Shown: positions 7,462-34,195 of the stretch, piece by piece | How positions within the stretch are numbered: the first letter of the stretch is position 1 | Layout: each line of letters starts with the position of its first letter | DNA from: a virus | Lineage: Duplodnaviria > Caudoviricetes | IMG/VR virus record: IMGVR_UViG_3300037483_000113 | Span: 1 to 41,498 of that record | Strand: one strand, 5' to 3' | Length of the DNA stretch: 41,498 nucleotides | The notes under the pieces: model-generated | The model's database searches: none | What the model was told of the DNA's origin: nothing | What the model saw: only the letters and a program-made list of their open reading frames with translations | Made by a program: the position numbers and the translations under genes

Positions 7462-8346
7462 ATGAGCTACACGAACGTCAAGAGCGAGTGGGTGGACGGC
7501 AACCTCGTCTTCTCCGACAAGGCCGGCGCGGTCATCTTCACCATCGACGGCACGAACCGGAAGTTCACCTTCCCCTCCGGAAGCGAACTGGAGCTCGCGT
7601 CTGGCGCCATCGCCGACTTCAGCGATGAGGCCCTCGCCGCCGCCGACATCGCGCTGGCCGAGGGATCCATCCTCGTCGGCAACGCTGCGGGTGCCGCTGC
7701 GGCCCTGGACGCCAAGGGCGACACCAAGGTGCTCGTCGGCAACGCGACCACCATCACGTCGGTGGCCCTGAGCGGTGACGTGACGATGGACAACGCCGGG
7801 GCCGTCACCCTGGCCGCCGACTCCGTGGACCTGTCCCACCTCGGCTCCGACACGAACACCTGGCTCAACGACATCCGTACCTACGTGGCGGATGGGATGC
7901 TCGCCATCGCGACGATCACGGTGAGCGCCGGCGACGCCACGGACTTCAAGACCACGACCACGGCGATCTACCGCATCGCGGGGACGCACTACACCAAGGC
8001 GGCCACGGACACGCTTAGCTTCAGTGCGGCCGACACGATCAACACGGGTGCGGGCGCCGGTACGCTGTGGGGCATCTGGCTCGTCCAGATCAACGCGGCG
8101 GGCACGGTCAGCACGAAGCCCGGCGCGGTGGACATGACCTACGCCAACGAGGCTGCGGCCATCGCGGCCCTGCCTGCCGTGGACGCCGACAACATCCAGA
8201 TCGGCTACATCACCGTGCAGGGGTTGGAGGCCACGGAGTGGGTGGCGAACACGGGCAACCTGACCGTGGGCGGGGGCGCGGGTAACGTCACCGCCCGCTC
8301 GTTCTACGACCTGCCGACTCCGGCGACGCTGCCGGCCGCGCTGTAA
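7462..8346 (+). CDS. Putative head fibre or decoration protein
   Basis: Ala/Gly/Thr-rich, with fibre-like repeats GSILVGNAAG, VLVGNAT and ALSGDVTM. Confidence 0.65.
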   Translation: MSYTNVKSEWVDGNLVFSDKAGAVIFTIDGTNRKFTFPSGSELELASGAIADFSDEALAAADIALAEGSILVGNAAGAAAALDAKGDTKVLVGNATTITSVALSGDVTMDNAGAVTLAADSVDLSHLGSDTNTWLNDIRTYVADGMLAIATITVSAGDATDFKTTTTAIYRIAGTHYTKAATDTLSFSAADTINTGAGAGTLWGIWLVQINAAGTVSTKPGAVDMTYANEAAAIAALPAVDADNIQIGYITVQGLEATEWVANTGNLTVGGGAGNVTARSFYDLPTPATLPAAL

Positions 8347-8354
8347 CGCACGAA

Positions 8355-8381
8355 CGGGGGCGGGTACACCGCCCGCCCCCG
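8355..8381 (+). other. GC-rich intergenic hairpin without a clear U-tract
   Basis: CGGGGGCGGGT-ACACC-GCCCGCCCCCG. Confidence 0.6.
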
Positions 8382-8405
8382 GACCTTCTGCCGGAGAGGT
8401 GATCC

Positions 8406-8777
8406 ATGGCCGGTTCGGCGATGGTGTTCACGGAGACGACCCACACCAGCGCGCGGAAGATCGTCGCGGCCTGGACCGCCGACGACGCGACGGGCGCCGT
8501 CAGCGGTGACACGTCGTTTTCCTACGATGGCGCATGCCTCGGGTTCACCACGATCCCGGGCACCGGTGGCGACGCGCCGGACGACAACTACGACGTGGCG
8601 ATCACGGACGCCGACGGCCACGACGTGCTCCTGGGCGCGGGCGCGAACCGCGACACCGCGAACACCGAACACGTTGCTGGCACGAGCCTCGCGTGCGCGG
8701 CCGGTAGCGTGTTGACGTTCGCGATCACGAACGCCGGGAACGCCAACAAGGGCACGGTCGTTCTGTGGGTGCGCTGA
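8406..8777 (+). CDS. Hypothetical virion protein
   Basis: GAGGTG RBS, lies in the structural operon. Confidence 0.75.
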   Translation: MAGSAMVFTETTHTSARKIVAAWTADDATGAVSGDTSFSYDGACLGFTTIPGTGGDAPDDNYDVAITDADGHDVLLGAGANRDTANTEHVAGTSLACAAGSVLTFAITNAGNANKGTVVLWVR

Positions 8778-8781
8778 CGCC

Positions 8782-9357
8782 ATGCGCCTGATCCTGACCA
8801 CCGGCCCCACCGAGGAACCCATCGCCCTCCCGGACGCGAAGCGCCACCTCCGGGTGAGCGATGACGCGACCGACGAGGATGCGCTGATCCTCGACTGGAT
8901 CGCCAGCGCGCGCCGTGAAGCGGAGCGCGTGATGGGCCGTCCGCTCGTTCAGCAGACGTGGACGGGGAAGATGGACTATTTCCCCGACAGCAACGAGATC
9001 GAGATCCCGCTCGCCCCGCTCGTCAGCGTGTCCAGCGTCAAGTACATCGACCCGGACGGCGACCTTCAGACGTTCTCTTCTGCCAGTTACACGGTGGACC
9101 TTTCCGGCGTGTTGGGTCGGATCTACCTGAACTACGGCGAGTCCTGGCCGAGCATCCGAGTGGAGCCGAACGCCGTCCGCATCGAGTTCGTTGCCGGGTA
9201 CGGTGACGCCTCTACGGTGCCCGAGGACGTGCGGTCCTGGATGCTGCTCCGCATCGGTGAGCGGTACGAGCACCGGGAGGGCACGGTGGTGGGTACCATC
9301 GCCACCAGGCTACCCGGCGTCGACGCGCTGGTGACCGGCGAACGGATCGGGTTCTGA
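8782..9357 (+). CDS. Head-tail connector/adaptor (gp6-like)
   Basis: EEPIALPDAKRHLRV, LVQQTW, AVRIEFVAGYG, VPEDVR..MLLRIGERYEHRE. Confidence 0.92.
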   Translation: MRLILTTGPTEEPIALPDAKRHLRVSDDATDEDALILDWIASARREAERVMGRPLVQQTWTGKMDYFPDSNEIEIPLAPLVSVSSVKYIDPDGDLQTFSSASYTVDLSGVLGRIYLNYGESWPSIRVEPNAVRIEFVAGYGDASTVPEDVRSWMLLRIGERYEHREGTVVGTIATRLPGVDALVTGERIGF

Positions 9358-10518: not shown

Positions 10519-11250
10519 ATGGCCACCCAGGTACTCACAAATACGAAGCTCTACCTTGCCGAGTTCGACCTGTCCGGGGACCACAACGCGCTCGCGCTGA
10601 ACTACTCGGCCGAGATGCAGGACTCCACCGTGTTCGGCAATGCGGCGCGAAACCGGGCGGGTGGGCTCAAGGTCGTCTCATTCTCCGGTGAAGGCTTCTG
10701 GTCGGGCGGCGACGGGCTGGTGGATGAGGTGCTGTACGGGAAGATCGGCGTCGCCGACGCCCCCTGCACCATCGCGCCCGTGGGCGAGACGCTGGCCAAC
10801 GACGCCTACCTGTTCCGCTGCATCATGGGCCAGTACCAGTTCGGCGCCCCGGTCGGGGAGCTTCTGCGCTTCTCCGTCTCTGGCGAGGGATCGGGCGGTG
10901 TGGGCGTCGTGCGCGGGAAGCTGATTCACGTCGGGAGCGAGACCGCGACGGGCGCGGAGGACAAGCAGGTGCTCGGCGCGGTGAGCGCCACACAGAGCAT
11001 CTACGCCGCCCTGCACGTCCTGACCGTCACGGGCACGGATCCCACGCTCGACGTCGTGCTCGAATCAGACGCCGACGGGACGGCCGGCGGCGAGACGGCG
11101 CGTATCACGTTCGCTCAGGCGACGGCCGAAACGTCCGAGTGGGCATCGCTCGCCGGCGCGGTCACCGACACCTACTGGCGCGCGAGCTGGACCATCGGCG
11201 GGACGGATACGCCGACCTTCGAGTTCATCCTGGCAGTCGGCATCCTCTAG
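10519..11250 (+). CDS. Tail tube-like protein with an extra C-terminal domain
   Basis: N-terminal half parallels 11260-11673 (DLS.....L.YSAE..D.T..G..AR.RAGGLK). Confidence 0.7.
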   Translation: MATQVLTNTKLYLAEFDLSGDHNALALNYSAEMQDSTVFGNAARNRAGGLKVVSFSGEGFWSGGDGLVDEVLYGKIGVADAPCTIAPVGETLANDAYLFRCIMGQYQFGAPVGELLRFSVSGEGSGGVGVVRGKLIHVGSETATGAEDKQVLGAVSATQSIYAALHVLTVTGTDPTLDVVLESDADGTAGGETARITFAQATAETSEWASLAGAVTDTYWRASWTIGGTDTPTFEFILAVGIL

Positions 11251-11259
11251 GAGAGTACC

Positions 11260-11673
11260 ATGGCAACAAGAATCCTGAATGACGCGTTCGTCTCCTGGGA
11301 TGGGGTGGACCTGAGCGACCACGTCCGCCAGGCCACGCTCACCTACTCGGCTGAGCTGCTGGACGACACGGCGATGGGCGACACGGCGCGCTCGCGGGCC
11401 GGTGGGCTCAAGGACTGGAGCGCGGACATCGAGTTCTACGCCGACGAGGCGTCGGGCAAGGTCCAGCAGACGATCTTCGCGGACGTCGGCGTGACGGGCA
11501 CGCTCATTGTTCGCCCGGACAACTCTGAGGGCGTGAGCGCCACCAACCCGAACTACACCGGGACGGGGATCGTGGAGTCCATCCCGCTCGTGGCTGGCGG
11601 GGTGGGCGAGATGCAGATGGCCCCGGTGCGCATCCTGGCGGCCGGCACCACCCTGACCCGCGCCGAGGCGTAG
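11260..11673 (+). CDS. Major tail tube protein
   Basis: DLSDHVRQATL, DDTAMGDTARSRAGGLKDWS, SATNPNYTG; precedes the chaperone and tape measure genes. Confidence 0.85.
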   Translation: MATRILNDAFVSWDGVDLSDHVRQATLTYSAELLDDTAMGDTARSRAGGLKDWSADIEFYADEASGKVQQTIFADVGVTGTLIVRPDNSEGVSATNPNYTGTGIVESIPLVAGGVGEMQMAPVRILAAGTTLTRAEA

Positions 11674-15728: not shown

Positions 15729-18309
15729 GGGCACGCTGCTTGACGCCATTTCGATTGCGGCACTCTTTGTCCCGCTGCCCGGCGTCAACGTGTTTTTGGC
15801 GGCCGCAATCCGCGCGAGCATTGTCATTTCTGCGTCCTACGCCAAGTCCAAGCTGGCCCGCTCGGGCGCGCTGGAGAACCAGATCGCGGGCTCGACGCTC
15901 AACGTGATGAGCAACGAGGCCGTGCTGCCCGTGGTGTACGGGACGGCCAAGGTGGGCATGATCCTGGCCGACGTGCAGCAGGACAGCGCACAGGTCAAGA
16001 CCATCGCCGTGGTCGGGGCGCTCTGCATGGGCTCGGAAGATGGGACCGGCATCGAGAGCGTCACGAAGGTCTACTTCGACGACGTACTGGCCATCGACGG
16101 ACCCACGGCCACCACGGGCGCGACAAACAACACGAACGTGCAAAGCCCGTGGAAGACCGGCACCACCTACGGGACGGACCTGTGGATACAGTACGGGCTC
16201 CAGTTGGGCGCGGACGCTCAGGCCGCCGACACGGAGCTGGTGAGTCGCTTCGCCAACTGGACCGCGACGGACGAGGGCGTGGGCGTGGCCTCGCTCGCCC
16301 TGCTGCTCTACTACAACGAGGAAGTGTGGACGACGGGCCGCCCGAACGTGACGGCGCTGGTCAAGGGCCAGAAGGTCTATGATCCGCGCACCACCACCAC
16401 GGTGTGGTCGGACAACCCGGCGCTTTGTATTCGGGACTGGATGACCTCGGTGCGCTACGGCATGGGCATCCCCGAGGCGCAGATCAACGACGCCTCGATT
16501 ACGGCAGCCGCCAACTACTGCGACGTGAGCGTGAGTATCCCGGGCCCGTCAACGCAGAAGCGATTCACCTGCAACGGTCTGGTGAACCCTGCCGACTCTC
16601 CGCTCGCCAACCTGCAACGGCTGCTGTCGTCCTGTCGTGGCGAGATCGTGCGCATCGGGAGCGAGTACCACCTGCAGATCCGGCAGACGGCCACCGCGGA
16701 AACCGTCACCCTCACCGAAAACAACATCATCGGTGATTTCGAGTTCTTCCGGGGCGGCATCGAAGAGGCGCCGAACCGGATCACCGCCACGTTCGTGGAC
16801 CCCGACCTCAACTACCAGCCCAACGATATGTCGTGGCCGGCGGCGGGCGCGGCGAACGCCTACCTGACGGCGGACAACAGCTTCAGCTCCCACCAGTTCA
16901 TCGAGCTGCCCTACACGAATGACCTCTACCGCGCTCAGCAGATTGGACAGACGCTGCTCAAGGAAGGCCGGGAGGATCTCGGTGTAGCCCTCACGGCCAA
17001 CCGTGAAGCACTCCAGTTCCAACAGGGCGACGTGGTGAAGGTCACGCACCCCACACCGGCGTGGACCGAAAAGCAGTTCTGGGTCCTCGCCATGGGCATC
17101 CTTCCGGACGGTAACGTGCGGATGGTCCTGCGTGAGTACGACGCCGACGCCTACACGCTGGACGCGCTCGCGGCCAAGGACGCGGCACCATCCACGAACC
17201 TGCCCGCCACTACGACCACGACGGCGCCCACGGGCCTGACCCTAACGGCCGACGCCACCACGGCAGAGGCCCTCCAGGACCTCACCACGGTTCCGCAGAT
17301 CCTCGTGGAGTGGACGGCATCGACCGACCCGTTCCTCGCGGGCTATCAGATCCGCTTGAAGGAGACGGCGGCGGCGGACTCCACCTACGAAGTCGTGGCC
17401 GCCCCATCCGCGAGCGCCGTGCAGGCGTACATCGGCAATGTGGCGAACGGGACGCAGTACACCGTCGGCGTCCGGGCGATGAACGCCATCAACGTGTTCA
17501 GCGCATGGGTGAGCGACACGATTACGGTGGGCACGTCGGAGCAGGTGGCGTCGGCCGGGCTGTCCGTGTTCCTCGACGGCGCCGACATGAAGGTGCGTCG
17601 GAGCGGCGGATCGGCCCAGAGTCTGTCCTACTTCGTGAAGGCGACCGAACCGAGCCTGGCCGAAGTCCAGGGCGGCACGGATAGCGCGTCCGCCACCGTG
17701 ACGGTCCACACGTTCTCGGCTCCGGGTACGCAATGGGTCGGCGTCCTGCTCTACACGGACGCGTCGTCCACCGTGAACGAGTCGGGCCTGTTCACCTTCC
17801 CGATCACCTATCAGGAACAGACGGCTGGCGTGCTGGGCGAGGCGAGCGGCGGCACGTCGGAGAGCACCTATGCGACCGGCGATATGCTCTACGCATCGGC
17901 CGCGGACACGCTGGCAAAGCGCACCATCGGGTCCGCGAGTGCACTGCTCCAGGTCCAGTCGGGCGTGCCCGCTTGGGACACGTCGCTGGACGGGTACACG
18001 GGGCACGCCGTGTACGACAACGGGAGCAAGGGCACGAACTTCAACTGGGACGCGAGCAACGGCAACATCCAGCGCGTGACGCTGACGGCCTCCGTGACGA
18101 TCACGCCGACGAACTTCGTCGCGGGTTCCCCGGCGGTGCTCATCATCGAGTACGGCGGGGCCTACACGCCGACCATTTCGTCCATGGACTACGGGGACAA
18201 CACCCCGACGTATTCCGCTGATTCCGCCAAGGCGGATTGGGTCCATGCCCTGCTGGTCGGGTCTGTCTACTTCGCCAGCGTGTCCACGGGGCACGTCAAC
18301 CCGACATGA
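15721..18309 (+). CDS. Central tail hub / host specificity protein (J-like) with an Fn3-like domain
   Basis: LPVVYG, VKGQKVYDPR, WSDNPALCIRD, AANYCD, RFTCNG, GDVVKVTH, YTVGVRAMN. Confidence 0.93.
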   Translation: MSKGTLLDAISIAALFVPLPGVNVFLAAAIRASIVISASYAKSKLARSGALENQIAGSTLNVMSNEAVLPVVYGTAKVGMILADVQQDSAQVKTIAVVGALCMGSEDGTGIESVTKVYFDDVLAIDGPTATTGATNNTNVQSPWKTGTTYGTDLWIQYGLQLGADAQAADTELVSRFANWTATDEGVGVASLALLLYYNEEVWTTGRPNVTALVKGQKVYDPRTTTTVWSDNPALCIRDWMTSVRYGMGIPEAQINDASITAAANYCDVSVSIPGPSTQKRFTCNGLVNPADSPLANLQRLLSSCRGEIVRIGSEYHLQIRQTATAETVTLTENNIIGDFEFFRGGIEEAPNRITATFVDPDLNYQPNDMSWPAAGAANAYLTADNSFSSHQFIELPYTNDLYRAQQIGQTLLKEGREDLGVALTANREALQFQQGDVVKVTHPTPAWTEKQFWVLAMGILPDGNVRMVLREYDADAYTLDALAAKDAAPSTNLPATTTTTAPTGLTLTADATTAEALQDLTTVPQILVEWTASTDPFLAGYQIRLKETAAADSTYEVVAAPSASAVQAYIGNVANGTQYTVGVRAMNAINVFSAWVSDTITVGTSEQVASAGLSVFLDGADMKVRRSGGSAQSLSYFVKATEPSLAEVQGGTDSASATVTVHTFSAPGTQWVGVLLYTDASSTVNESGLFTFPITYQEQTAGVLGEASGGTSESTYATGDMLYASAADTLAKRTIGSASALLQVQSGVPAWDTSLDGYTGHAVYDNGSKGTNFNWDASNGNIQRVTLTASVTITPTNFVAGSPAVLIIEYGGAYTPTISSMDYGDNTPTYSADSAKADWVHALLVGSVYFASVSTGHVNPT

Positions 18310-19076
18310 TCCCCGCCCTGATCGCCCGCCCGCTTCGGGCGTCCCTATACCCGCCCGTGGCGTCCGGCGCCTATGTCGCCATCTACGACCCCGACCGGCA
18401 AGGCTACTCGGACCTCGACACGCCCACGTCGATGGTGGATTACCTCGGCATCGTGGGTGACTTGACCGCCGGGTCCGGGAACGAGTTCGAGTATCAGGCG
18501 GCGGAAGCTGCTTTCGGCGGACAGGGCTGCATGGCCGCGTCCTCGGCGCAAACAGAGTCGATGATCGTCACCGACTCCACCCTGGCCGCGCTGGTCACCG
18601 GCGTCGGCTGGAGCTTCACCATGATCGGCGTCGTGGAGCCCGGGGACACCGGGTATACCGAGGAGGTCATGCCGATCCTGTACGGTGGCGGGCACTACAT
18701 CGGGCTCAAGTTCTTGAGTTCGACGCAAATGCAGGTCTACGCAAATGGGGCGACCGCGGCGGCGCAACTTCTCACGACCAACTCGCCGCAGCCCAGCAGC
18801 CTGGTCGGAAGCGCGCACATCTTCACCGTGCGCGCCAAGATGGCTTCGCCGCCCGCGTTCAATATCCGCGTAGACGGTGCCGCTCATTCGGTGAACAGCC
18901 CGACGCAGACGGGCGCGCTCAGCGGCGTGACGAGCATGGCCTACATCTACTCGCTCACCAGCGTTTCGGATTCCTTCGAGGGACGGGCGGCGTGGATGGC
19001 GTTCCTGGACTCATACCTGACGGACGAGGACTGCGCCAGAATCGAGGGCTACCTGGCAACCCGATACGGGATCTAA
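18306..19076 (+). CDS. Putative lectin/LamG-like tail receptor-binding protein
   Basis: Beta-rich; C-terminal LTDEDCARIEGYLATRYGI is typical of such tail proteins; ATGA coupling. Confidence 0.7.
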   Translation: MIPALIARPLRASLYPPVASGAYVAIYDPDRQGYSDLDTPTSMVDYLGIVGDLTAGSGNEFEYQAAEAAFGGQGCMAASSAQTESMIVTDSTLAALVTGVGWSFTMIGVVEPGDTGYTEEVMPILYGGGHYIGLKFLSSTQMQVYANGATAAAQLLTTNSPQPSSLVGSAHIFTVRAKMASPPAFNIRVDGAAHSVNSPTQTGALSGVTSMAYIYSLTSVSDSFEGRAAWMAFLDSYLTDEDCARIEGYLATRYGI

Positions 19077-23368: not shown

Positions 23369-23540
23369 TCCGCTCCTCCACCAGTCTCCGGATCGCCAGC
23401 TCCGCTTCCGTGTCGATCGGGTAGCGGTCCGCGCCCCGCATGCGTCCATGCACCGTCACCCGGTGGACACCGAGCGCGCGGGCTGCTGCGCTCGGGCCAC
23501 CAAGGCGGGTGACGAGGGCGGTGTATTCGCGGGGGGTCAC
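23349..23540 (-). CDS. Small HTH DNA-binding protein
   Basis: GGPSAAARALGVHRVTVHGRM; GTG at 23540 overlaps the upstream stop. Confidence 0.75.
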   Translation of the reverse strand: MTPREYTALVTRLGGPSAAARALGVHRVTVHGRMRGADRYPIDTEAELAIRRLVEERISASRQ

Positions 23541-23776
23541 AGCCACAGCCGTGCGGGCTTTTTGCCACACGTCCCGCACGCCAACAGGTCCGCGTGGGGC
23601 TCGTTCATCATGTCGGGCGTCACCTTCATGATGGGCTGGCCGCTGATGTCGCATCCGGTGAAGCGTGCGGAAGCGCCAAGGTGCTCACCGCAGTAGCATG
23701 CGCCGCCGTCCGTGAGGTACACGCCGTCCGGGTCGTCGCGGCGGAGGTCTGTCTTGTGCGCGTGCGTGGCGTTCAT
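23537..23776 (-). CDS. Hypothetical Zn-binding protein
   Basis: CxxH and CxxC; GGAG RBS; coupled to neighbours. Confidence 0.75.
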   Translation of the reverse strand: MNATHAHKTDLRRDDPDGVYLTDGGACYCGEHLGASARFTGCDISGQPIMKVTPDMMNEPHADLLACGTCGKKPARLWL

Positions 23777-24019: not shown

Positions 24020-24048
24020 AGTATAGCACTACAGGGAGGGGGAGTCAA
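24020..24048 (-). promoter_or_regulatory. Near-consensus leftward sigma70 promoter
   Basis: Minus strand TTGACT, 17-bp spacer, TATACT, with TGn extended -10. Confidence 0.85.
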
Positions 24049-24361
24049 CAACTATATTTCGGTGCGGGATAGGGACTTACGCGGTCGGCCCGGCTCTGGC
24101 AGATCGTCGGAGGGATCGGAGTAGGGACGGCTGTCGTACAGGCGGTCGTGCCGGGCACCTAACCGCATCATCGTCACGATCTCGTTCACGGAGGCCTCGC
24201 ATTCGCCCGCCACGCCCCACGACGCTGGCGCCCACCGTGTCCCGTCCACCACGGACGGCTCCCCGGCACCACAACGCCCCCGTCGCGGTCCTGGGGCAAC
24301 GTCGTGCGTCGGGCGTTTTCGTTGGGAAGCCAACACTTTCCAATTCATCGGCGACAAACAC

Positions 24362-24402
24362 TTGACACCCGCACCGGCCCACCGTAGCGTATGCCATACA
24401 AT
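24362..24402 (+). promoter_or_regulatory. Rightward early promoter
   Basis: TTGACA (24362-67), 17-bp spacer, TAGCGT; a second -10-like TACAAT at 24397-402. Confidence 0.7.
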
Positions 24403-24701: not shown

Positions 24702-25357
24702 AATCCGTGGAGGCGTGGCATTTCTTGGCCGACAGCGGGAAACTACGAGATAGCAGACCGGCGGTGGACGGGGAGTGGCTGTTGCACACCGGCCCTGCCG
24801 TGATGTGCAAAAGCGGGCTCCATGCGAGCCGGAAAGTGACCGACGCGCTGAGTTACGCGCCGGGCTCGATCCTGTGCCGCGTCGAGTGTCGTGGGGTGGT
24901 GGAGGAACGGGGCGACAAACTCCTCTGCCTGGAGCGCAAGATCATCTGGCGGATCGACGCGACCGACGTGCTTCACCGTTTTGCCCGGATGTGTGCCCTT
25001 GATGTCATTGGCCTCTGGGACGCACCTGCTGTGGTGGTGGAGTTTCTGAATACCGGGGACGCGTCGTTAGGGGCTGCTGCGGGGGCTGCTGCGTGGGATG
25101 CTGCGTGGGCTGCTGCGTGGGCTGCTGCGGGGGCTGCTGCGAGGGCTGCTGCGTGGGCTGCTGCGGGGGCTGCTGCGTGGGATGCTGCGTGGGCTGCTGC
25201 GGGGGCTGCTGCGAGGGCTGCTGCGTGGGCTGCTGCGTGGGATGCTGCGGATGCTGCGAGGGCTGCTGCGTGGGATGCGAGGGGGGCAAGGCAGGAACGT
25301 AGGTTGGTTGCACTCGCATATGCGGAGCACAAGCGAGTGCAGGGAGGTGGCGTATGA
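24698..25357 (+). CDS. Phage protein with an SGLHAS domain and an AAW/AAR repeat tail
   Basis: CKSGLHAS....AL.YAPG..LCRVE......DKL pattern; RFARMCA; Ala-rich repeats. Confidence 0.85.
   Translation: MKSVEAWHFLADSGKLRDSRPAVDGEWLLHTGPAVMCKSGLHASRKVTDALSYAPGSILCRVECRGVVEERGDKLLCLERKIIWRIDATDVLHRFARMCALDVIGLWDAPAVVVEFLNTGDASLGAAAGAAAWDAAWAAAWAAAGAAARAAAWAAAGAAAWDAAWAAAGAAARAAAWAAAWDAADAARAAAWDARGARQERRLVALAYAEHKRVQGGGV
25070..25279 (+). repeat. 12-bp coding tandem repeat (about 17 units, G[C/A]TGCTGCG[T/G/A]GG)
   Basis: Seen directly; encodes AAAW/AAAG/AAAR/DAAW. Confidence 0.95.
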
Positions 25358-25957: not shown

Positions 25958-26404
25958 ATGAACAAGCTGACAGTGAGGCATCTGCGGAAGGCGGGCGCGT
26001 GCTCGGATCAGGTGAGGTTGTTCGAGCGGACGTTCCCTAACGGCGTGCGTCCGACGATGAGGGCATGGGCCAAGGCGTGGGCCGCCGGGCTGGACGTGTT
26101 CTGGTGTGCGTCGCTGCTCAGGGGTCCGGCGTTGGCCGAGTACGAGCGGGTCAGGGGTCCGGCGTTGGCCGAGTACGAGCGGGTCAGGGGTCCGGCGTGG
26201 GCCGAGTACGAGCGGGTCAGGGGTCCGGCGTGGGCCGAGTACGAGCGGGTCAGGGGTGCGGCGTGGGCCGAGCACGAGCGGGTCACGGGTGCGGCGTGGG
26301 CCGAGTACGAGCGGGTCAGGGGTCCGGCGTTGGCCGAGTACGAGCGGGTCAGGGGTCCGGCGTTTACGAAGGCGCTACGGCAGACCTTGGACGGGGAGGG
26401 CTGA
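25958..26404 (+). CDS. Phage protein with 11-aa tandem repeats
   Basis: GGAG RBS; LRKAGAC..QV.LF...FP N-terminus, then RGPAxAEYERV x7. Confidence 0.85.
   Translation: MNKLTVRHLRKAGACSDQVRLFERTFPNGVRPTMRAWAKAWAAGLDVFWCASLLRGPALAEYERVRGPALAEYERVRGPAWAEYERVRGPAWAEYERVRGAAWAEHERVTGAAWAEYERVRGPALAEYERVRGPAFTKALRQTLDGEG
26120..26362 (+). repeat. 33-bp coding tandem repeat, 7 full copies plus a partial copy
   Basis: Unit AGGGGTCCGGCGT(T/G)GGCCGAGTACGAGCGGGTC, contiguous with no spacers. Confidence 0.95.
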
Positions 26405-30990: not shown

Positions 30991-31272
30991 ATGCCGCCCA
31001 GCAAGCCGACATCGGCCAGCGTCTCGCGCTCGGGGCCGAAGACCGTGGCGTCCTCCTGGAGCGCGCCCAGGGCGACGGACGTGGCGGCAGGCTCCGACTC
31101 GCACGTCACCATCTGGCAGGGCGATGCGCTCGCGGTTCTCCGCACTATGCCGGACGCCTCGATGCATTGCTGCGTGACGAGCCCGCCTTATTGGGGGCTG
31201 CGGGACTACGGCGAGCCTGGGCAGCTTGGCCTTGAGCCGGCTGGTCGAAGTGACCCGGTTGTAGAAACGTGA
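30991..31272 (+). pseudogene. Truncated beta-class N4/N6 DNA methyltransferase
   Basis: IWQGDALAVLRTMPDASMHCCVTSPPYWGLRDYG..GQLGLE, then a stop; no SAM-binding FxGxG part. Confidence 0.85.
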
Positions 31273-31306: not shown

Positions 31307-32023
31307 ATGACCCAGATTGACGCGCTGCCCCTCGCTCGCTTGGGGGCCGACGACTGCAAGGCGCTCAAGGCCGCCGTGTCCGTGGACGAGGACCGGCCCA
31401 TCCTGAACAACGTGCTCTTGCGAGACGGCATCGCGGAGGCCACCAACGGGCGCGTGCTCGTGCGCATCCCCATGGTCGGCCCGGGCGGCGAGGAGTTTGC
31501 CTTGCCCTCCGACTGCGCGGGCAATCGCTTCCTGCTCCACCGTTCGGCCCTGGAACACGTCAAGGGCGGTACCGCGCTGGAGGTGGACATGCGCACCGGC
31601 GAAGTGTGGGTCGTGGCCGCCGGGGAGCAGAAGGACGGCTACCCCATCGAACTCCCAGACGCCGAGATCGAGACGGTTGGCATCGCATACCCGGACACCG
31701 ACAAGGCGCTTCCCGTGGTGGACGGCGGGTACCGGACCCTCCGCCTCGGCGCCCCCGTCATCAAGGCTATGCTCGCGTTCGCCGGTGGCACGTCGAAACA
31801 CCCCGGGTCGCTGACGCTCATGGTCCCGCCGGAGGGTGATGGCGAGGGTGTGTGCACCGCGCTCACGTTCCGCCGCCGTGGCGAAATCCCGCGCACCGGC
31901 CTCGTCATGCCCATGCGCTCGTTCGACGAGGGGGCCGACGCACCCGAGCCCACCGACAAGCCCGAGTCCACAGATCCAGCCCAGGCCGATGCGTTCCCGA
32001 CGCCTGAGGGCGAAGCCGCGTGA
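31307..32023 (+). CDS. DNA polymerase III beta-clamp-like protein
   Basis: VSVDEDRPILNNV, ATNGRVL, YPDTDKALP and C-terminal GLVMPMR match clamp motifs; AGGAG RBS. Confidence 0.72.
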   Translation: MTQIDALPLARLGADDCKALKAAVSVDEDRPILNNVLLRDGIAEATNGRVLVRIPMVGPGGEEFALPSDCAGNRFLLHRSALEHVKGGTALEVDMRTGEVWVVAAGEQKDGYPIELPDAEIETVGIAYPDTDKALPVVDGGYRTLRLGAPVIKAMLAFAGGTSKHPGSLTLMVPPEGDGEGVCTALTFRRRGEIPRTGLVMPMRSFDEGADAPEPTDKPESTDPAQADAFPTPEGEAA

Positions 32024-32475
32024 CGCTTGTCACCTGGACCCCCACCGTCTGCCCGACGTGCGGCGACGAGCTACCCGGCCTCGGCACCTACTGCGAGGGG
32101 TGCGCCGCCTACGTGGAGGACATGGGCGCCACCACCGACGCCACGCCCGAGGCACGTGCGCGGGCGATCAAGGACACGCGCACCGAGGCCGAGGTCCAGC
32201 TTGCCATCCGCAGAACAGCCGAAGCCCTTGGGTACGACGTGTACGACCTGAGCCAGGGCAGACCTACACGCCAACCCGCAGGTGTGCCGGATCTCTACGT
32301 GAGGGGCCACGGGAGGCGAGTGTGGATCGAGGTCAAGCGACCATCGGGCGGGCATGTGTCGGAGCACCAGGGGGCGTTCATCGACGGCGAGCGGGAGCAC
32401 GGCGGCGAAGCGTTCGTCGCTCGTTCTGAGCAGGACTTCATCCGGTGGCACGAAGGACGGGTGAGCGCGGTATGA
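32020..32475 (+). CDS. VRR-NUC domain nuclease with an N-terminal Zn ribbon
   Basis: TEAEVQ, GVPDL, WIEVKRP.G...SEHQ; CxxC..CxxC. Confidence 0.9.
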   Translation: MTLVTWTPTVCPTCGDELPGLGTYCEGCAAYVEDMGATTDATPEARARAIKDTRTEAEVQLAIRRTAEALGYDVYDLSQGRPTRQPAGVPDLYVRGHGRRVWIEVKRPSGGHVSEHQGAFIDGEREHGGEAFVARSEQDFIRWHEGRVSAV

Positions 32476-32482
32476 CGGCCAT

Positions 32483-33060
32483 GGGGACGCGGCTGCGGCC
32501 CGCAAGGGATGGGGGGTCAGAGCCCCACCGGAGGCTCTTCTACTCCGGCCAGCCGCGTACCCCTTTACTTTCGACGGCGGGCGACTGTAACTTTCGTTCA
32601 GCTCCGAAAGTGCCTGGACGGCATCACCATGAGCTAAGAAGGGCCAGCACGTCTCCCCCGCGCTTCCAAGGCCGGGGCACCCACCGTCCAGGGGGTGTCG
32701 GAGCGACGCGCTGGTCCTTCGCTTTTCATGGTCATGAACAGAACTCTGACACCGTCATCTGTGAGCCCGCCCCCTCCCCGGCGTGTGCCCGAATCAGACG
32801 GGATGAAAGCGCCCAAGCCCTCCAATCAAATCCACGCAACGCAGCGGTGCAACGTGGTCGGTCACAGGCTTGGGCGTTCGTGCATCCACACGGCACGCGG
32901 TGGGTTCTCCCGGCATCGTTAGGAGCGGGTCGCGATGCGGACGGCCTACGGGTGCAAGCCGCCGCTCCGGGAGTCACAGGGAAGGTGGCAACCTCAACGG
33001 TCCAGTCCTGTGACCGTTAAACCGAGGCATGGCAACCGCAGAGGAGCAAATGACGATGCC
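32483..33060 (+). ncRNA. Candidate large structured ncRNA (may extend to about 33340)
   Basis: More than 15 complementary pairs of 5-11 bp found by eye; G-U wobbles fit the + strand; GCAA tetraloops; no convincing protein ORF. Confidence 0.68.
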
Positions 33061-33355
33061 TAATCGCATAGGACCCGGAAACCGATTCGTGCGCGCCTTC
33101 ACTCGGGCCGAAGCCCGCGCTCGGTTGCGCGCCGTGGCCCGAGAAGTGGGCGGGACCCCCCGCCAGTGTGAGATCCCCCACGTCTGTGCGATCATCGGCG
33201 CGCTGGGTTGCCGGACGCTCTCGGGGGCCGTCGTACATCGAGCGCAGCCACGCCTTTCGGGTGCGACTCCGCACGGAGCATTGGGACGACTTCGTGGGGC
33301 GCAACAGCCAGGGAGCGCACCCCATGACCCCACGGTATAGCCGAGAGGGGGGCGC

Positions 33356-34195
33356 GTGAGCGACAGGAACGGAGCACTCAAAGCATTATTGGCGCAACGG
33401 CCAGCGTGGGCGAATAGGATCGTCCTGGCTGGCGTGTGTGGGTCAGATTCGCACGGCACCAAGCTCCCGCCAGAGCATCCGCGCCACACGGACGACGTGG
33501 ACACCTTTGGGGTGTCCGTCCAGCCTACATCTTGGTATCTCGGGCTGAGTGGCTATCACGGCAGCGCCCGCCAGTCGTGGACCACGGCAGGGGAGCATTA
33601 CGACCACCTCATCCACGATGTTCGCAAGATGTTCGCGCTTCTCATCAAGGGGAACCCGAACGTTCACTCTTGGCTGTGGGCAGACCCGGAAGATGTCCTC
33701 CTCTGCACGCCAGCCGGGCGACTAATTGTGGACAACCGGCGACTGTTCTTGAGCGCGCGGTGTTTCGCCGCCCTTGCCGGTTACGCGCGCGCCCAACTTC
33801 ACAAGATGGATCGCAAGCGGTACCAGGGATATCAGGGCGCGAAACGCAGGGCGATGGTGGACGAATTGGGCTACGACGTGAAACACGCCGCCCACTGCAT
33901 CCGCCTGCTCAACATGGGAATCGAGTTGGCGCGGACGGGGGAAATGGCGACGCGCCGTCCGGTAGCGGAGGCCGTAACCTTGACGGAGATCAAGGCTGGA
34001 GAATGGCCGTTCCGCCGCACGGAGAGCCTCGCCAGTGACCTGTGGGTCAGGTTTCAGGACGCCGAACGCTCCGCCACGCTTCCACCCGAGCCAGACGCGG
34101 AAGCTGCCGACGCGCTGCTGCTGTCTGTGATCGAAGCCGCCGACCGCGCCCCCACGCACGAAGACCTGAACGAAGGGAGGGAGCCGAGGCTATGA
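33356..34195 (+). CDS. Pol-beta superfamily nucleotidyltransferase (RlaP/YcgL-like)
   Basis: GSDSHG...DDVDTFGV catalytic motif, KGNPN, FAALAGYARAQL, GYDVKHAAHCIRLL, EIKAG. Confidence 0.9.
   Translation: MSDRNGALKALLAQRPAWANRIVLAGVCGSDSHGTKLPPEHPRHTDDVDTFGVSVQPTSWYLGLSGYHGSARQSWTTAGEHYDHLIHDVRKMFALLIKGNPNVHSWLWADPEDVLLCTPAGRLIVDNRRLFLSARCFAALAGYARAQLHKMDRKRYQGYQGAKRRAMVDELGYDVKHAAHCIRLLNMGIELARTGEMATRRPVAEAVTLTEIKAGEWPFRRTESLASDLWVRFQDAERSATLPPEPDAEAADALLLSVIEAADRAPTHEDLNEGREPRL

Follow-up and report, generated by a model that had tools for sequence, protein, structure and literature searches.

A probable new class of large ornate phage RNA in the early region of a high-GC siphovirus

Results

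The locus and its genome setting

The window, i.e., the whole stretch of DNA analyzed here, is a complete virus record of 41,498 bases with direct terminal repeats and a GC content of 67%. Its phage is a siphovirus, with genes for terminase, portal, protease, capsid, tail, lysis, recombination and replication. The gap holding the RNA described in this study sits in the early region, with a VRR-NUC-like gene upstream and an RlaP-family gene downstream:

32020..32475 (+), VRR-NUC-like nuclease gene, upstream neighbor of the RNA, by family match
32483..33027 (+), whole conserved RNA unit of about 545 nt, with homologs in loci L022, L023 and L036 and a folding z of -3.83
33031..33340 (+), stretch outside the RNA, unconserved, with a possible short ORF (from 33050 or 33056 to 33340, SD-like GAGGAG)
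33356..34195 (+), RlaP-family nucleotidyltransferase gene (PF10127), downstream neighbor of the RNA, by family match

With a codon model trained on this genome, the gap emerged as the longest run of 120-nt segments lacking a coding-like frame (13 consecutive segments, starts 32341–33061), a test which is weak on its own, as two real genes (HNH and DUF7666) scored nearly as low. Gene callers place a 191-aa ORF (32445–33020) over the gap, for which no family match was found, and the possible ORF in 33031–33340 likewise has no family match and is absent from the protein collection searched. Judging by family coverage, neither flanking gene is truncated, and the RNA unit interrupts no gene in any of the four loci known to carry it, where it is always co-oriented with its neighbors.

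A pattern scan at the gap revealed neither a promoter nor a + strand terminator. A consensus promoter read by eye further upstream (TTGACA-17-TAGCGT, 24362–24390, +) would drive the whole early operon. Diverging from it across a short control region is a leftward sigma-70-like promoter, likewise read by eye (TTGACT-17-TATACT, 24020–24060, -), which is followed by small leftward genes. Elsewhere in the window, we observed two tandem repeats, namely a 12-mer repeated 17.6 times within the DUF7666 gene (25071–25278) and a 33-mer repeated 7.5 times in an unannotated stretch (26118–26363), as well as a 93-aa ORF (30991–31272), which aligns with no more than a short section of DNA methyltransferase profiles and is probably a truncated remnant, and an adjacent pair of major-tail-protein-like genes (10519–11673) matched to the same PHROGs.

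Homologs of the unit

Comparison with annotated phages and plasmids by blastn gave short chance matches only. Searches led by the neighboring genes were equally negative, as single-protein scans gave no homolog and none was present at 14 RlaP and five DnaB loci. A search with the 191-aa shadow ORF returned two relatives, whose alignment led to the metagenome loci L022 and L023 (0 of 26 stretches scanned in viral contigs, 2 of 262 in metagenome contigs). Both are close to the window, with 85 and 86% identity over 552 and 497 bases, the L023 copy being cut by its contig end at the 5' side. The distant homolog L036 (E 1.6e-11) was found by a motif from the 3' end of the unit, as one of eight scan matches, and lies in G006, a complete 50-kb phage, where it follows a VRR-NUC-like gene as in the window. 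Altogether, pattern scans in viral contigs gave true homologs in 0 of 12, 1 of 8 and 1 of 14 matches, the last being the same locus again, and none of 24 matches to the exact 17-base motif in GTDB genomes was a true homolog. The RNA unit thus appears to be rare.

A profile search added three further spurious translations (P0103–P0105) with conserved peptides on the same DNA blocks, so that four further homologs (P0101, P0103, P0104 and P0105) are known as spurious translations only. Two of the six proteins from this search, P0106 and P0107, were set aside as long, unrelated proteins. In P0104, as far as can be told from the translation, residues 18–24 (QVRILP) are compatible with a tRNA T-arm upstream of the core, at the place of the 5' module of the window (D1, see below). 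Among 78 sources, model R1 recovered no more than the four sequences on which it had been trained; short motif matches occurred in 7 of 29 viral records, and five of the 151 genomes from a single phylum gave weak matches, the two best of which were rejected as antisense to protein genes.

The DNA-level sample therefore comprises four sequences, the window and three homologs from two other phage lineages, which correspond to about three independent sequences since L022 and L023 are close kin. The window and G006 are phages, and L022/L023 carry phage-like genes. As the three lineages have almost no proteins in common, and as flanking proteins are either unshared or only 28–50% identical, the unit is far better conserved than its surroundings. 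The L022 locus lies on a 91-kb contig with a phage-like early region, on which tRNA-Pro, tRNA-Gln and genes for a TROVE (Ro60-like) protein and for an RNA ligase were noted (61–316, 284–1822, 8182–8913); no Y RNA was found there by Rfam.

Extent and folding

The first-pass annotation had proposed a structured RNA of 860–880 nt on the + strand and listed eight helices. All eight are in place, with zero mismatches and G-U wobbles only. Six of them lie inside the conserved unit, whereas two (32912/33060 and 33063/33192) extend beyond it and lack a conserved partner. The proposed size did not hold: homology stops sharply at about 33027 in all three DNA homologs, so that the 3' third of the original interval falls outside the element, which spans about 545 nt (32483–33027). 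The remainder, 33031–33340, is unconserved and folds like shuffled sequence (z -0.28).

The full 858-nt interval folds better than shuffles, though only modestly, with z -2.65 on the + strand and -3.00 on the - strand (20 shuffles each), and energy alone consequently does not pick the strand. The conserved unit (32483–33030, 548 nt) reaches z -3.83 with 0 of 100 shuffles as good, the lowest value among 29 intervals of 548 nt tested in the genome, the next being -2.99; this second-lowest interval (18300–18847) lies directly after the central tail fiber gene. The L022 copy folds with z -3.48, and the L036 copy, at z -0.76, folds no better than shuffles.

In the alignment with L022 and L023, helices 32809/32877 and 32801/32887 are intact in both. 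Helix 32763/32907 has two mismatches in L022, and helix 32783/32898 one mismatch in L023; moved by two bases in its register, the latter pairs fully in both relatives. Helix 32922/32968 keeps five of seven pairs in each, and helix 32973/33014 keeps 6/8 and 7/8 pairs in L022 and L023, respectively. For the 10-mer of 32912/33060, wobble-containing partners of 7–8 bp exist elsewhere downstream in both, which we take as chance level.

Predicted architecture

The structural model predicts a closed core of about 457 nt, in which multiway junctions are combined with two pseudoknots, and a 5' cloverleaf module that is optional. None of the pseudoknots was part of the original eight-helix listing. The elements of the model are:

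32483..32563 (+), D1, cloverleaf-shaped four-way junction and optional module, with a 13-bp basal stem, a GNRA arm and two further arms
32516..32522 (+), 5' strand of PK1, predicted partner 32744–32750 (7 bp)
32570..32573 (+), 5' strand of P0, predicted partner 33023–33026, closing the core
32574..32755 (+), D2, multi-branched domain with an 11–16 bp helix (32638–48/32710–20) and pseudoknot PK2
32613..32621 (+), 5' strand of the loop-loop pairing PK2, pairing with 32684–32692
32763..32907 (+), D3, long stem with junctions, comprising a CCCG/CGGG hairpin (32788–32802), helix 32809/32877 and an inner hairpin (32832–32857)
32859..32865 (+), 5' strand of PK3, predicted partner 33010–33016
32907..33013 (+), D4, nested helices 32908/32972 and 32924/32966, a GNRA-type hairpin and a variable hairpin
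32937..32952 (+), 16-nt block without variation, for the most part unpaired in the model and a candidate for the functional core
33009..33025 (+), 17-nt invariant 3' block, invariant in all four sequences

D1 is present in the window and L022, where 77 of its 81 bases are identical (with differences of A-U to G-U, GCAA to GAGA and a single loop base), and it is absent from L036; in L023 it falls in the region lost to the contig end. PK1 is perfect yet invariant in the window and L022, and PK3 forms seven base pairs in all four sequences, again without variation. Because of this invariance among the homologs, PK1, PK3 and D1 stay unproven parts of the model. PK3 also competes in part with a local helix (32975–79/33008–12), which is kept through wobbles in four of five pairs. 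The closing helix P0 can form 4 bp in all four sequences, with a U-G to U-A change in L022 and an extension by 7 bp in L036.

Within the core, D2 is identical to L022 at 148 of 186 positions, and its helix 32638–48/32710–20 is kept in all four sequences although rewritten in L036. The outer stem of D3 is absent in L036; its inner helices show both-sided changes in 3/11, 2/5 and 1/3 pairs, and the GCGG loop of the inner hairpin is invariant. The nested helices of D4 changed on both sides in 2/6 and 1/5 pairs. Three blocks are invariant in all four sequences (32856–65, 32937–52 and 33009–25), whereby the match of L036 to the last one is by selection, as 16 bases of this block were used to locate it. 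A peptide block compatible with 32937–32952 is found in P0101, P0103 and P0105. The same block contains a self-complementary GGCC (32944–32947), a possible symmetric kissing site, as reported for a loop of OLE (PMC12286853), or else a site of local pairing.

Strength of the structural evidence

The best-supported single element is PK2, which had been noted before any DNA homolog was in hand and then held in the homologs. It comprises nine Watson-Crick pairs in the window, seven in L022 and ten in L036, formed by different sequences, while combining strands across lineages gives only 3–6. Pairings of this length were reached by 38, 1056 and 7 of 20,000 shuffles, respectively, and four of six aligned pairs changed on both sides. 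Over the named structure of 59 pairs, 96% of the cells pair and nine pairs show both-sided changes vs. 2.7 in shuffles, counts which are not probabilities as the structures were drawn with the homologs in view. An unbiased, structure-agnostic stem test gave 11 both-sided pairs in the 3' half vs. 3.0 ± 2.2 (1 of 150 shuffles as high); in the 5' half, with its misaligned L036 row, it gave no signal. L036 accounts for most of the both-sided changes. When the minimum free energy (MFE) structure of the window was tested blindly against each homolog, it was not significantly preserved (kept-fraction P 0.08–0.44), partly because the pseudoknots are absent from it. With about three independent sequences, the comparative case is good, albeit below R-scape level.

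In the first-pass annotation, G-U wobbles had been taken to favor the + strand. Wobble-type changes and GNRA-type loops read correctly on the + strand, but the bias is weak, if consistent (Watson-Crick to G-U 9, 9 and 8 vs. Watson-Crick to A-C 7, 5 and 4).

Codon-type conservation is absent. Substitutions between the window and L022 are flat across codon positions 1/2/3 (25/29/25), with eight indel columns, and the P0101 translation follows one frame of the window, shifts to another and returns (38 shared 4-mers in one frame, 11 in another). As judged from these alignments, 32483–33027 is a non-coding conserved element. The proposal of a large structured + strand RNA is hence supported by homologs with pair-preserving changes and by the lack of codon-type conservation, and we consider it very probable that 32483–33027 is a real conserved structured RNA.

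Comparison with known RNAs

At gathering score, no Rfam family matched in the window, L022, L023 or G006, a mode which is not exhaustive, since two ARAGORN tRNAs of L022 were unlisted in it. At E up to 10, matches were restricted to eukaryotic snoRNA/miRNA-type noise and one weak F6 match in L036. The membership of GOLLD or ROOL suggested by the first-pass annotation was not borne out. GOLLD (RF02032) gave 0 matches at E up to 10 in the window and none in the L022/L036 regions, in a search run with no GOLLD positive control. ROOL (RF03087) gave 0 matches in the window and G006, whereas the positive control, ROOL on pMP118, was recovered by this search at E 1e-29 and 130 bits. The other suggestion of the first-pass annotation, a new class, stands, as both Rfam models are unmatched.

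Still, the unit resembles GOLLD in being a large phage RNA with loop-loop pairings and a conserved 3' core (about 400 nt in GOLLD) next to a variable 5' part (PMC12286853), a layout mirrored by a core present in all four sequences and a D1 that is variable. GOLLD is longer (700–830 vs. about 545 nt). The tRNAs near the RNA in L022, about 6 kb upstream, parallel GOLLD at one locus; ARAGORN finds none in the window, unlike the usual GOLLD/ROOL setting, and G006 yields one doubtful opposite-strand call. The three invariant motifs were absent from the supplements of PMC12286853 that were searched. ROOL RNAs average 581 nt, have several junctions and three pseudoknots and are phage-associated (PMC5737381). 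The unit is similar in length and is predicted to have several junctions, with one covariation-supported pseudoknot and two invariant ones; it differs by its 65% GC and its separable 5' module, whereas the halves of ROOL are described as intertwined (PMC12286853). Its two invariant blocks of 16–17 nt also exceed the conservation of ROOL, for which 10 highly conserved nucleotides are described (PMC5737381). Such blocks would suit a catalytic core, although a shallow sample also yields long invariant runs.

Among the large ornate bacterial RNAs OLE, raiA, ARRPOF and HEARO, some form dimers (PMC12286853; PMC12990946). None of these was matched by Rfam, and neither IsrB/IscB, Oap nor any other fixed partner gene accompanies the unit at the four loci. 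Group I and II introns, HYER, RNase P RNA and tmRNA share its size range, closed ends and a long-range pseudoknot. The unit differs from introns by the lack of an interrupted gene, maturase or endonuclease; no Rfam match to group I introns was obtained, and for group II introns and HYER there was neither a match at E up to 10 nor a domain V-like hairpin by eye. RNase P RNA and tmRNA had no Rfam match and no ARAGORN call in the window. For D1, Rfam gave no match to Y RNA or YrlA, and its third loop is not a conserved T-loop; a TROVE gene stands beside the RNA in L022 only, 4.2 kb away. The literature searched holds no description of this RNA, nor does the available part of 10.64898/2026.09.22.753630; a short fragment could sit in unsearched supplements of PMC10690425 and PMC12286853.

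Discussion

The explanation we favor, at a rough probability of 0.45 and thus tentatively, is that the unit belongs to a new class of large phage RNAs resembling GOLLD and ROOL, which would be cut from the early transcript and would act in trans as a protein-free folded particle. The RNA would be transcribed from the + strand within the early operon, as suggested by its co-orientation at all four loci, by the promoter at 24362–24390 and by the failure to find a promoter of its own. Pairing of the core ends by P0, together with host nucleases, could then free a stable RNA, which would measure about 457 nt without D1 and about 545 nt if D1 is included. PK2-type loop-loop pairings and the A-rich invariant junctions might compact this RNA, and some contacts could be intermolecular and lead to an oligomer; in the GOLLD/ROOL mode, certain pairings that had initially been detected through covariation turned out to connect separate molecules (PMC12286853). 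The particle could finally act as scaffold or decoy, in the most plausible case by tying up a host RNA-binding or anti-phage nuclease, and the cloverleaf D1 would be a tRNA-like cargo that can be swapped. These latter two steps, compaction with oligomerization and function, are drawn solely by analogy. Action in trans is argued by the downstream genes, which differ at all four loci and have their own SD-like sequences.

The main rival is a new large ribozyme, in which PK3, D4 and the invariant blocks would form an active site cutting, splicing or processing RNA, be it the unit itself, the early transcript or tRNA-like substrates. The invariant and largely unpaired blocks 32937–52 and 33009–25 fit this idea, as do the mutually exclusive partners of the 33007–16 strand, which could mark a reaction step, and the paired ends with a long-range pseudoknot stopping just short of the 3' end, a layout recalling RNase P and group I cores. 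We nevertheless consider a ribozyme unlikely: no Rfam ribozyme model matched at E up to 10, no gene is interrupted at any of the four loci, and short likenesses to group I P3 strands occur in the wrong order and lack the other core elements. Alternatively, the RNA could serve as the RNA subunit of a ribonucleoprotein, whose phage-encoded protein would be an RNA-repair enzyme or else a small Cys/His protein (genes at 23537–23776, -, in the window, 2331–2558, +, in L022 and 707–922, -, in L084). This protein of 71–79 aa, with invariant C-x2-H and C-x2-C motifs, is likely zinc-binding and is the only one found in all three RNA-bearing lineages (window, L022 and G006; 41–50% identical); it gave no Pfam, convincing PHROG, phage, plasmid, PDB or fold match. 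It occurred in one of 16 records tested, namely G006, yet 10 of the 16 are less than 90% complete or unrelated, it may only mark a shared host, and its gene is 3.5–9 kb away from the RNA and divergently transcribed in the window. As to repair enzymes, RlaP follows the RNA in the window, and in L022 a TROVE gene, an RNA ligase gene and two tRNA genes lie no more than about 6 kb away. These genes, however, vary by locus, no RNA-repair or TROVE-type family was detected among the 43 G006 ORFs scanned, and RlaP, whose relatives at 61–64% identity have ordinary genes upstream and no RNA, is not a fixed partner. The VRR-NUC-like gene is directly upstream in G006 as well (34% identical) and not in L022. 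A ribonucleoprotein thus seems rather improbable.

We give still less weight to a cis-acting leader or switch for the downstream early-operon genes. The location inside a co-oriented gene array, the 3' strand with its alternative partners and, in L023, a GAGG in the 3' strand of P0 a few bases before a start codon would agree with such a role; against it stand the differing downstream genes, the separate SD-like site at three of the four loci, the missing GAGG in L022, the lack of a + strand terminator pattern and a size of 450–550 nt, which is large for a leader. Least probable of all, in our judgment, is that the locus represents a DNA element (origin or recombination site), the 191-aa ORF or chance folding. 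Gene callers do list the ORF, relatives keep an open frame over much of the unit, the - strand folds equally well by energy and the blind MFE test was negative, but the codon-position pattern is flat, the frame switches, the ORF has no family, wobble-type changes and GNRA loops are correct on the + strand (a weak bias) and PK2 has been rewritten in three ways.

A more far-reaching version of the catalytic idea, which we regard as speculative and slightly less probable than a ribozyme in general, is a new catalytic phage RNA class. Its 457-nt double-pseudoknot core would build an active site from the two invariant blocks and would process an exchangeable tRNA-like 5' module or use it as bait in phage-host RNA warfare. 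The module would then be a cloverleaf in the window and missing in L036, and the P0104 locus might have a genuine tRNA-type arm in its place.

Whichever function applies, the RNA unit probably represents a new class among large ornate phage RNAs, which as a kind are already known. Few bacterial or phage RNA classes exceed 400 nt with so many junctions and pseudoknots, and the known roles of such RNAs are mostly those of ribozymes or ribonucleoprotein cores. The locus also illustrates why such RNAs escape notice, as a spurious ORF from gene callers hides the unit from intergenic screens; in one such screen, candidates from IMG/VR reach only up to 151 nt (PMC10690425). GOLLD and ROOL form protein-free cages whose purpose is unknown, and how common cages are among large natural RNAs was left open (PMC12286853). 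An unrelated high-GC class, with length variants carrying or lacking D1 and a kissing pseudoknot rewritten in three ways, would make the question of cage formation directly testable.
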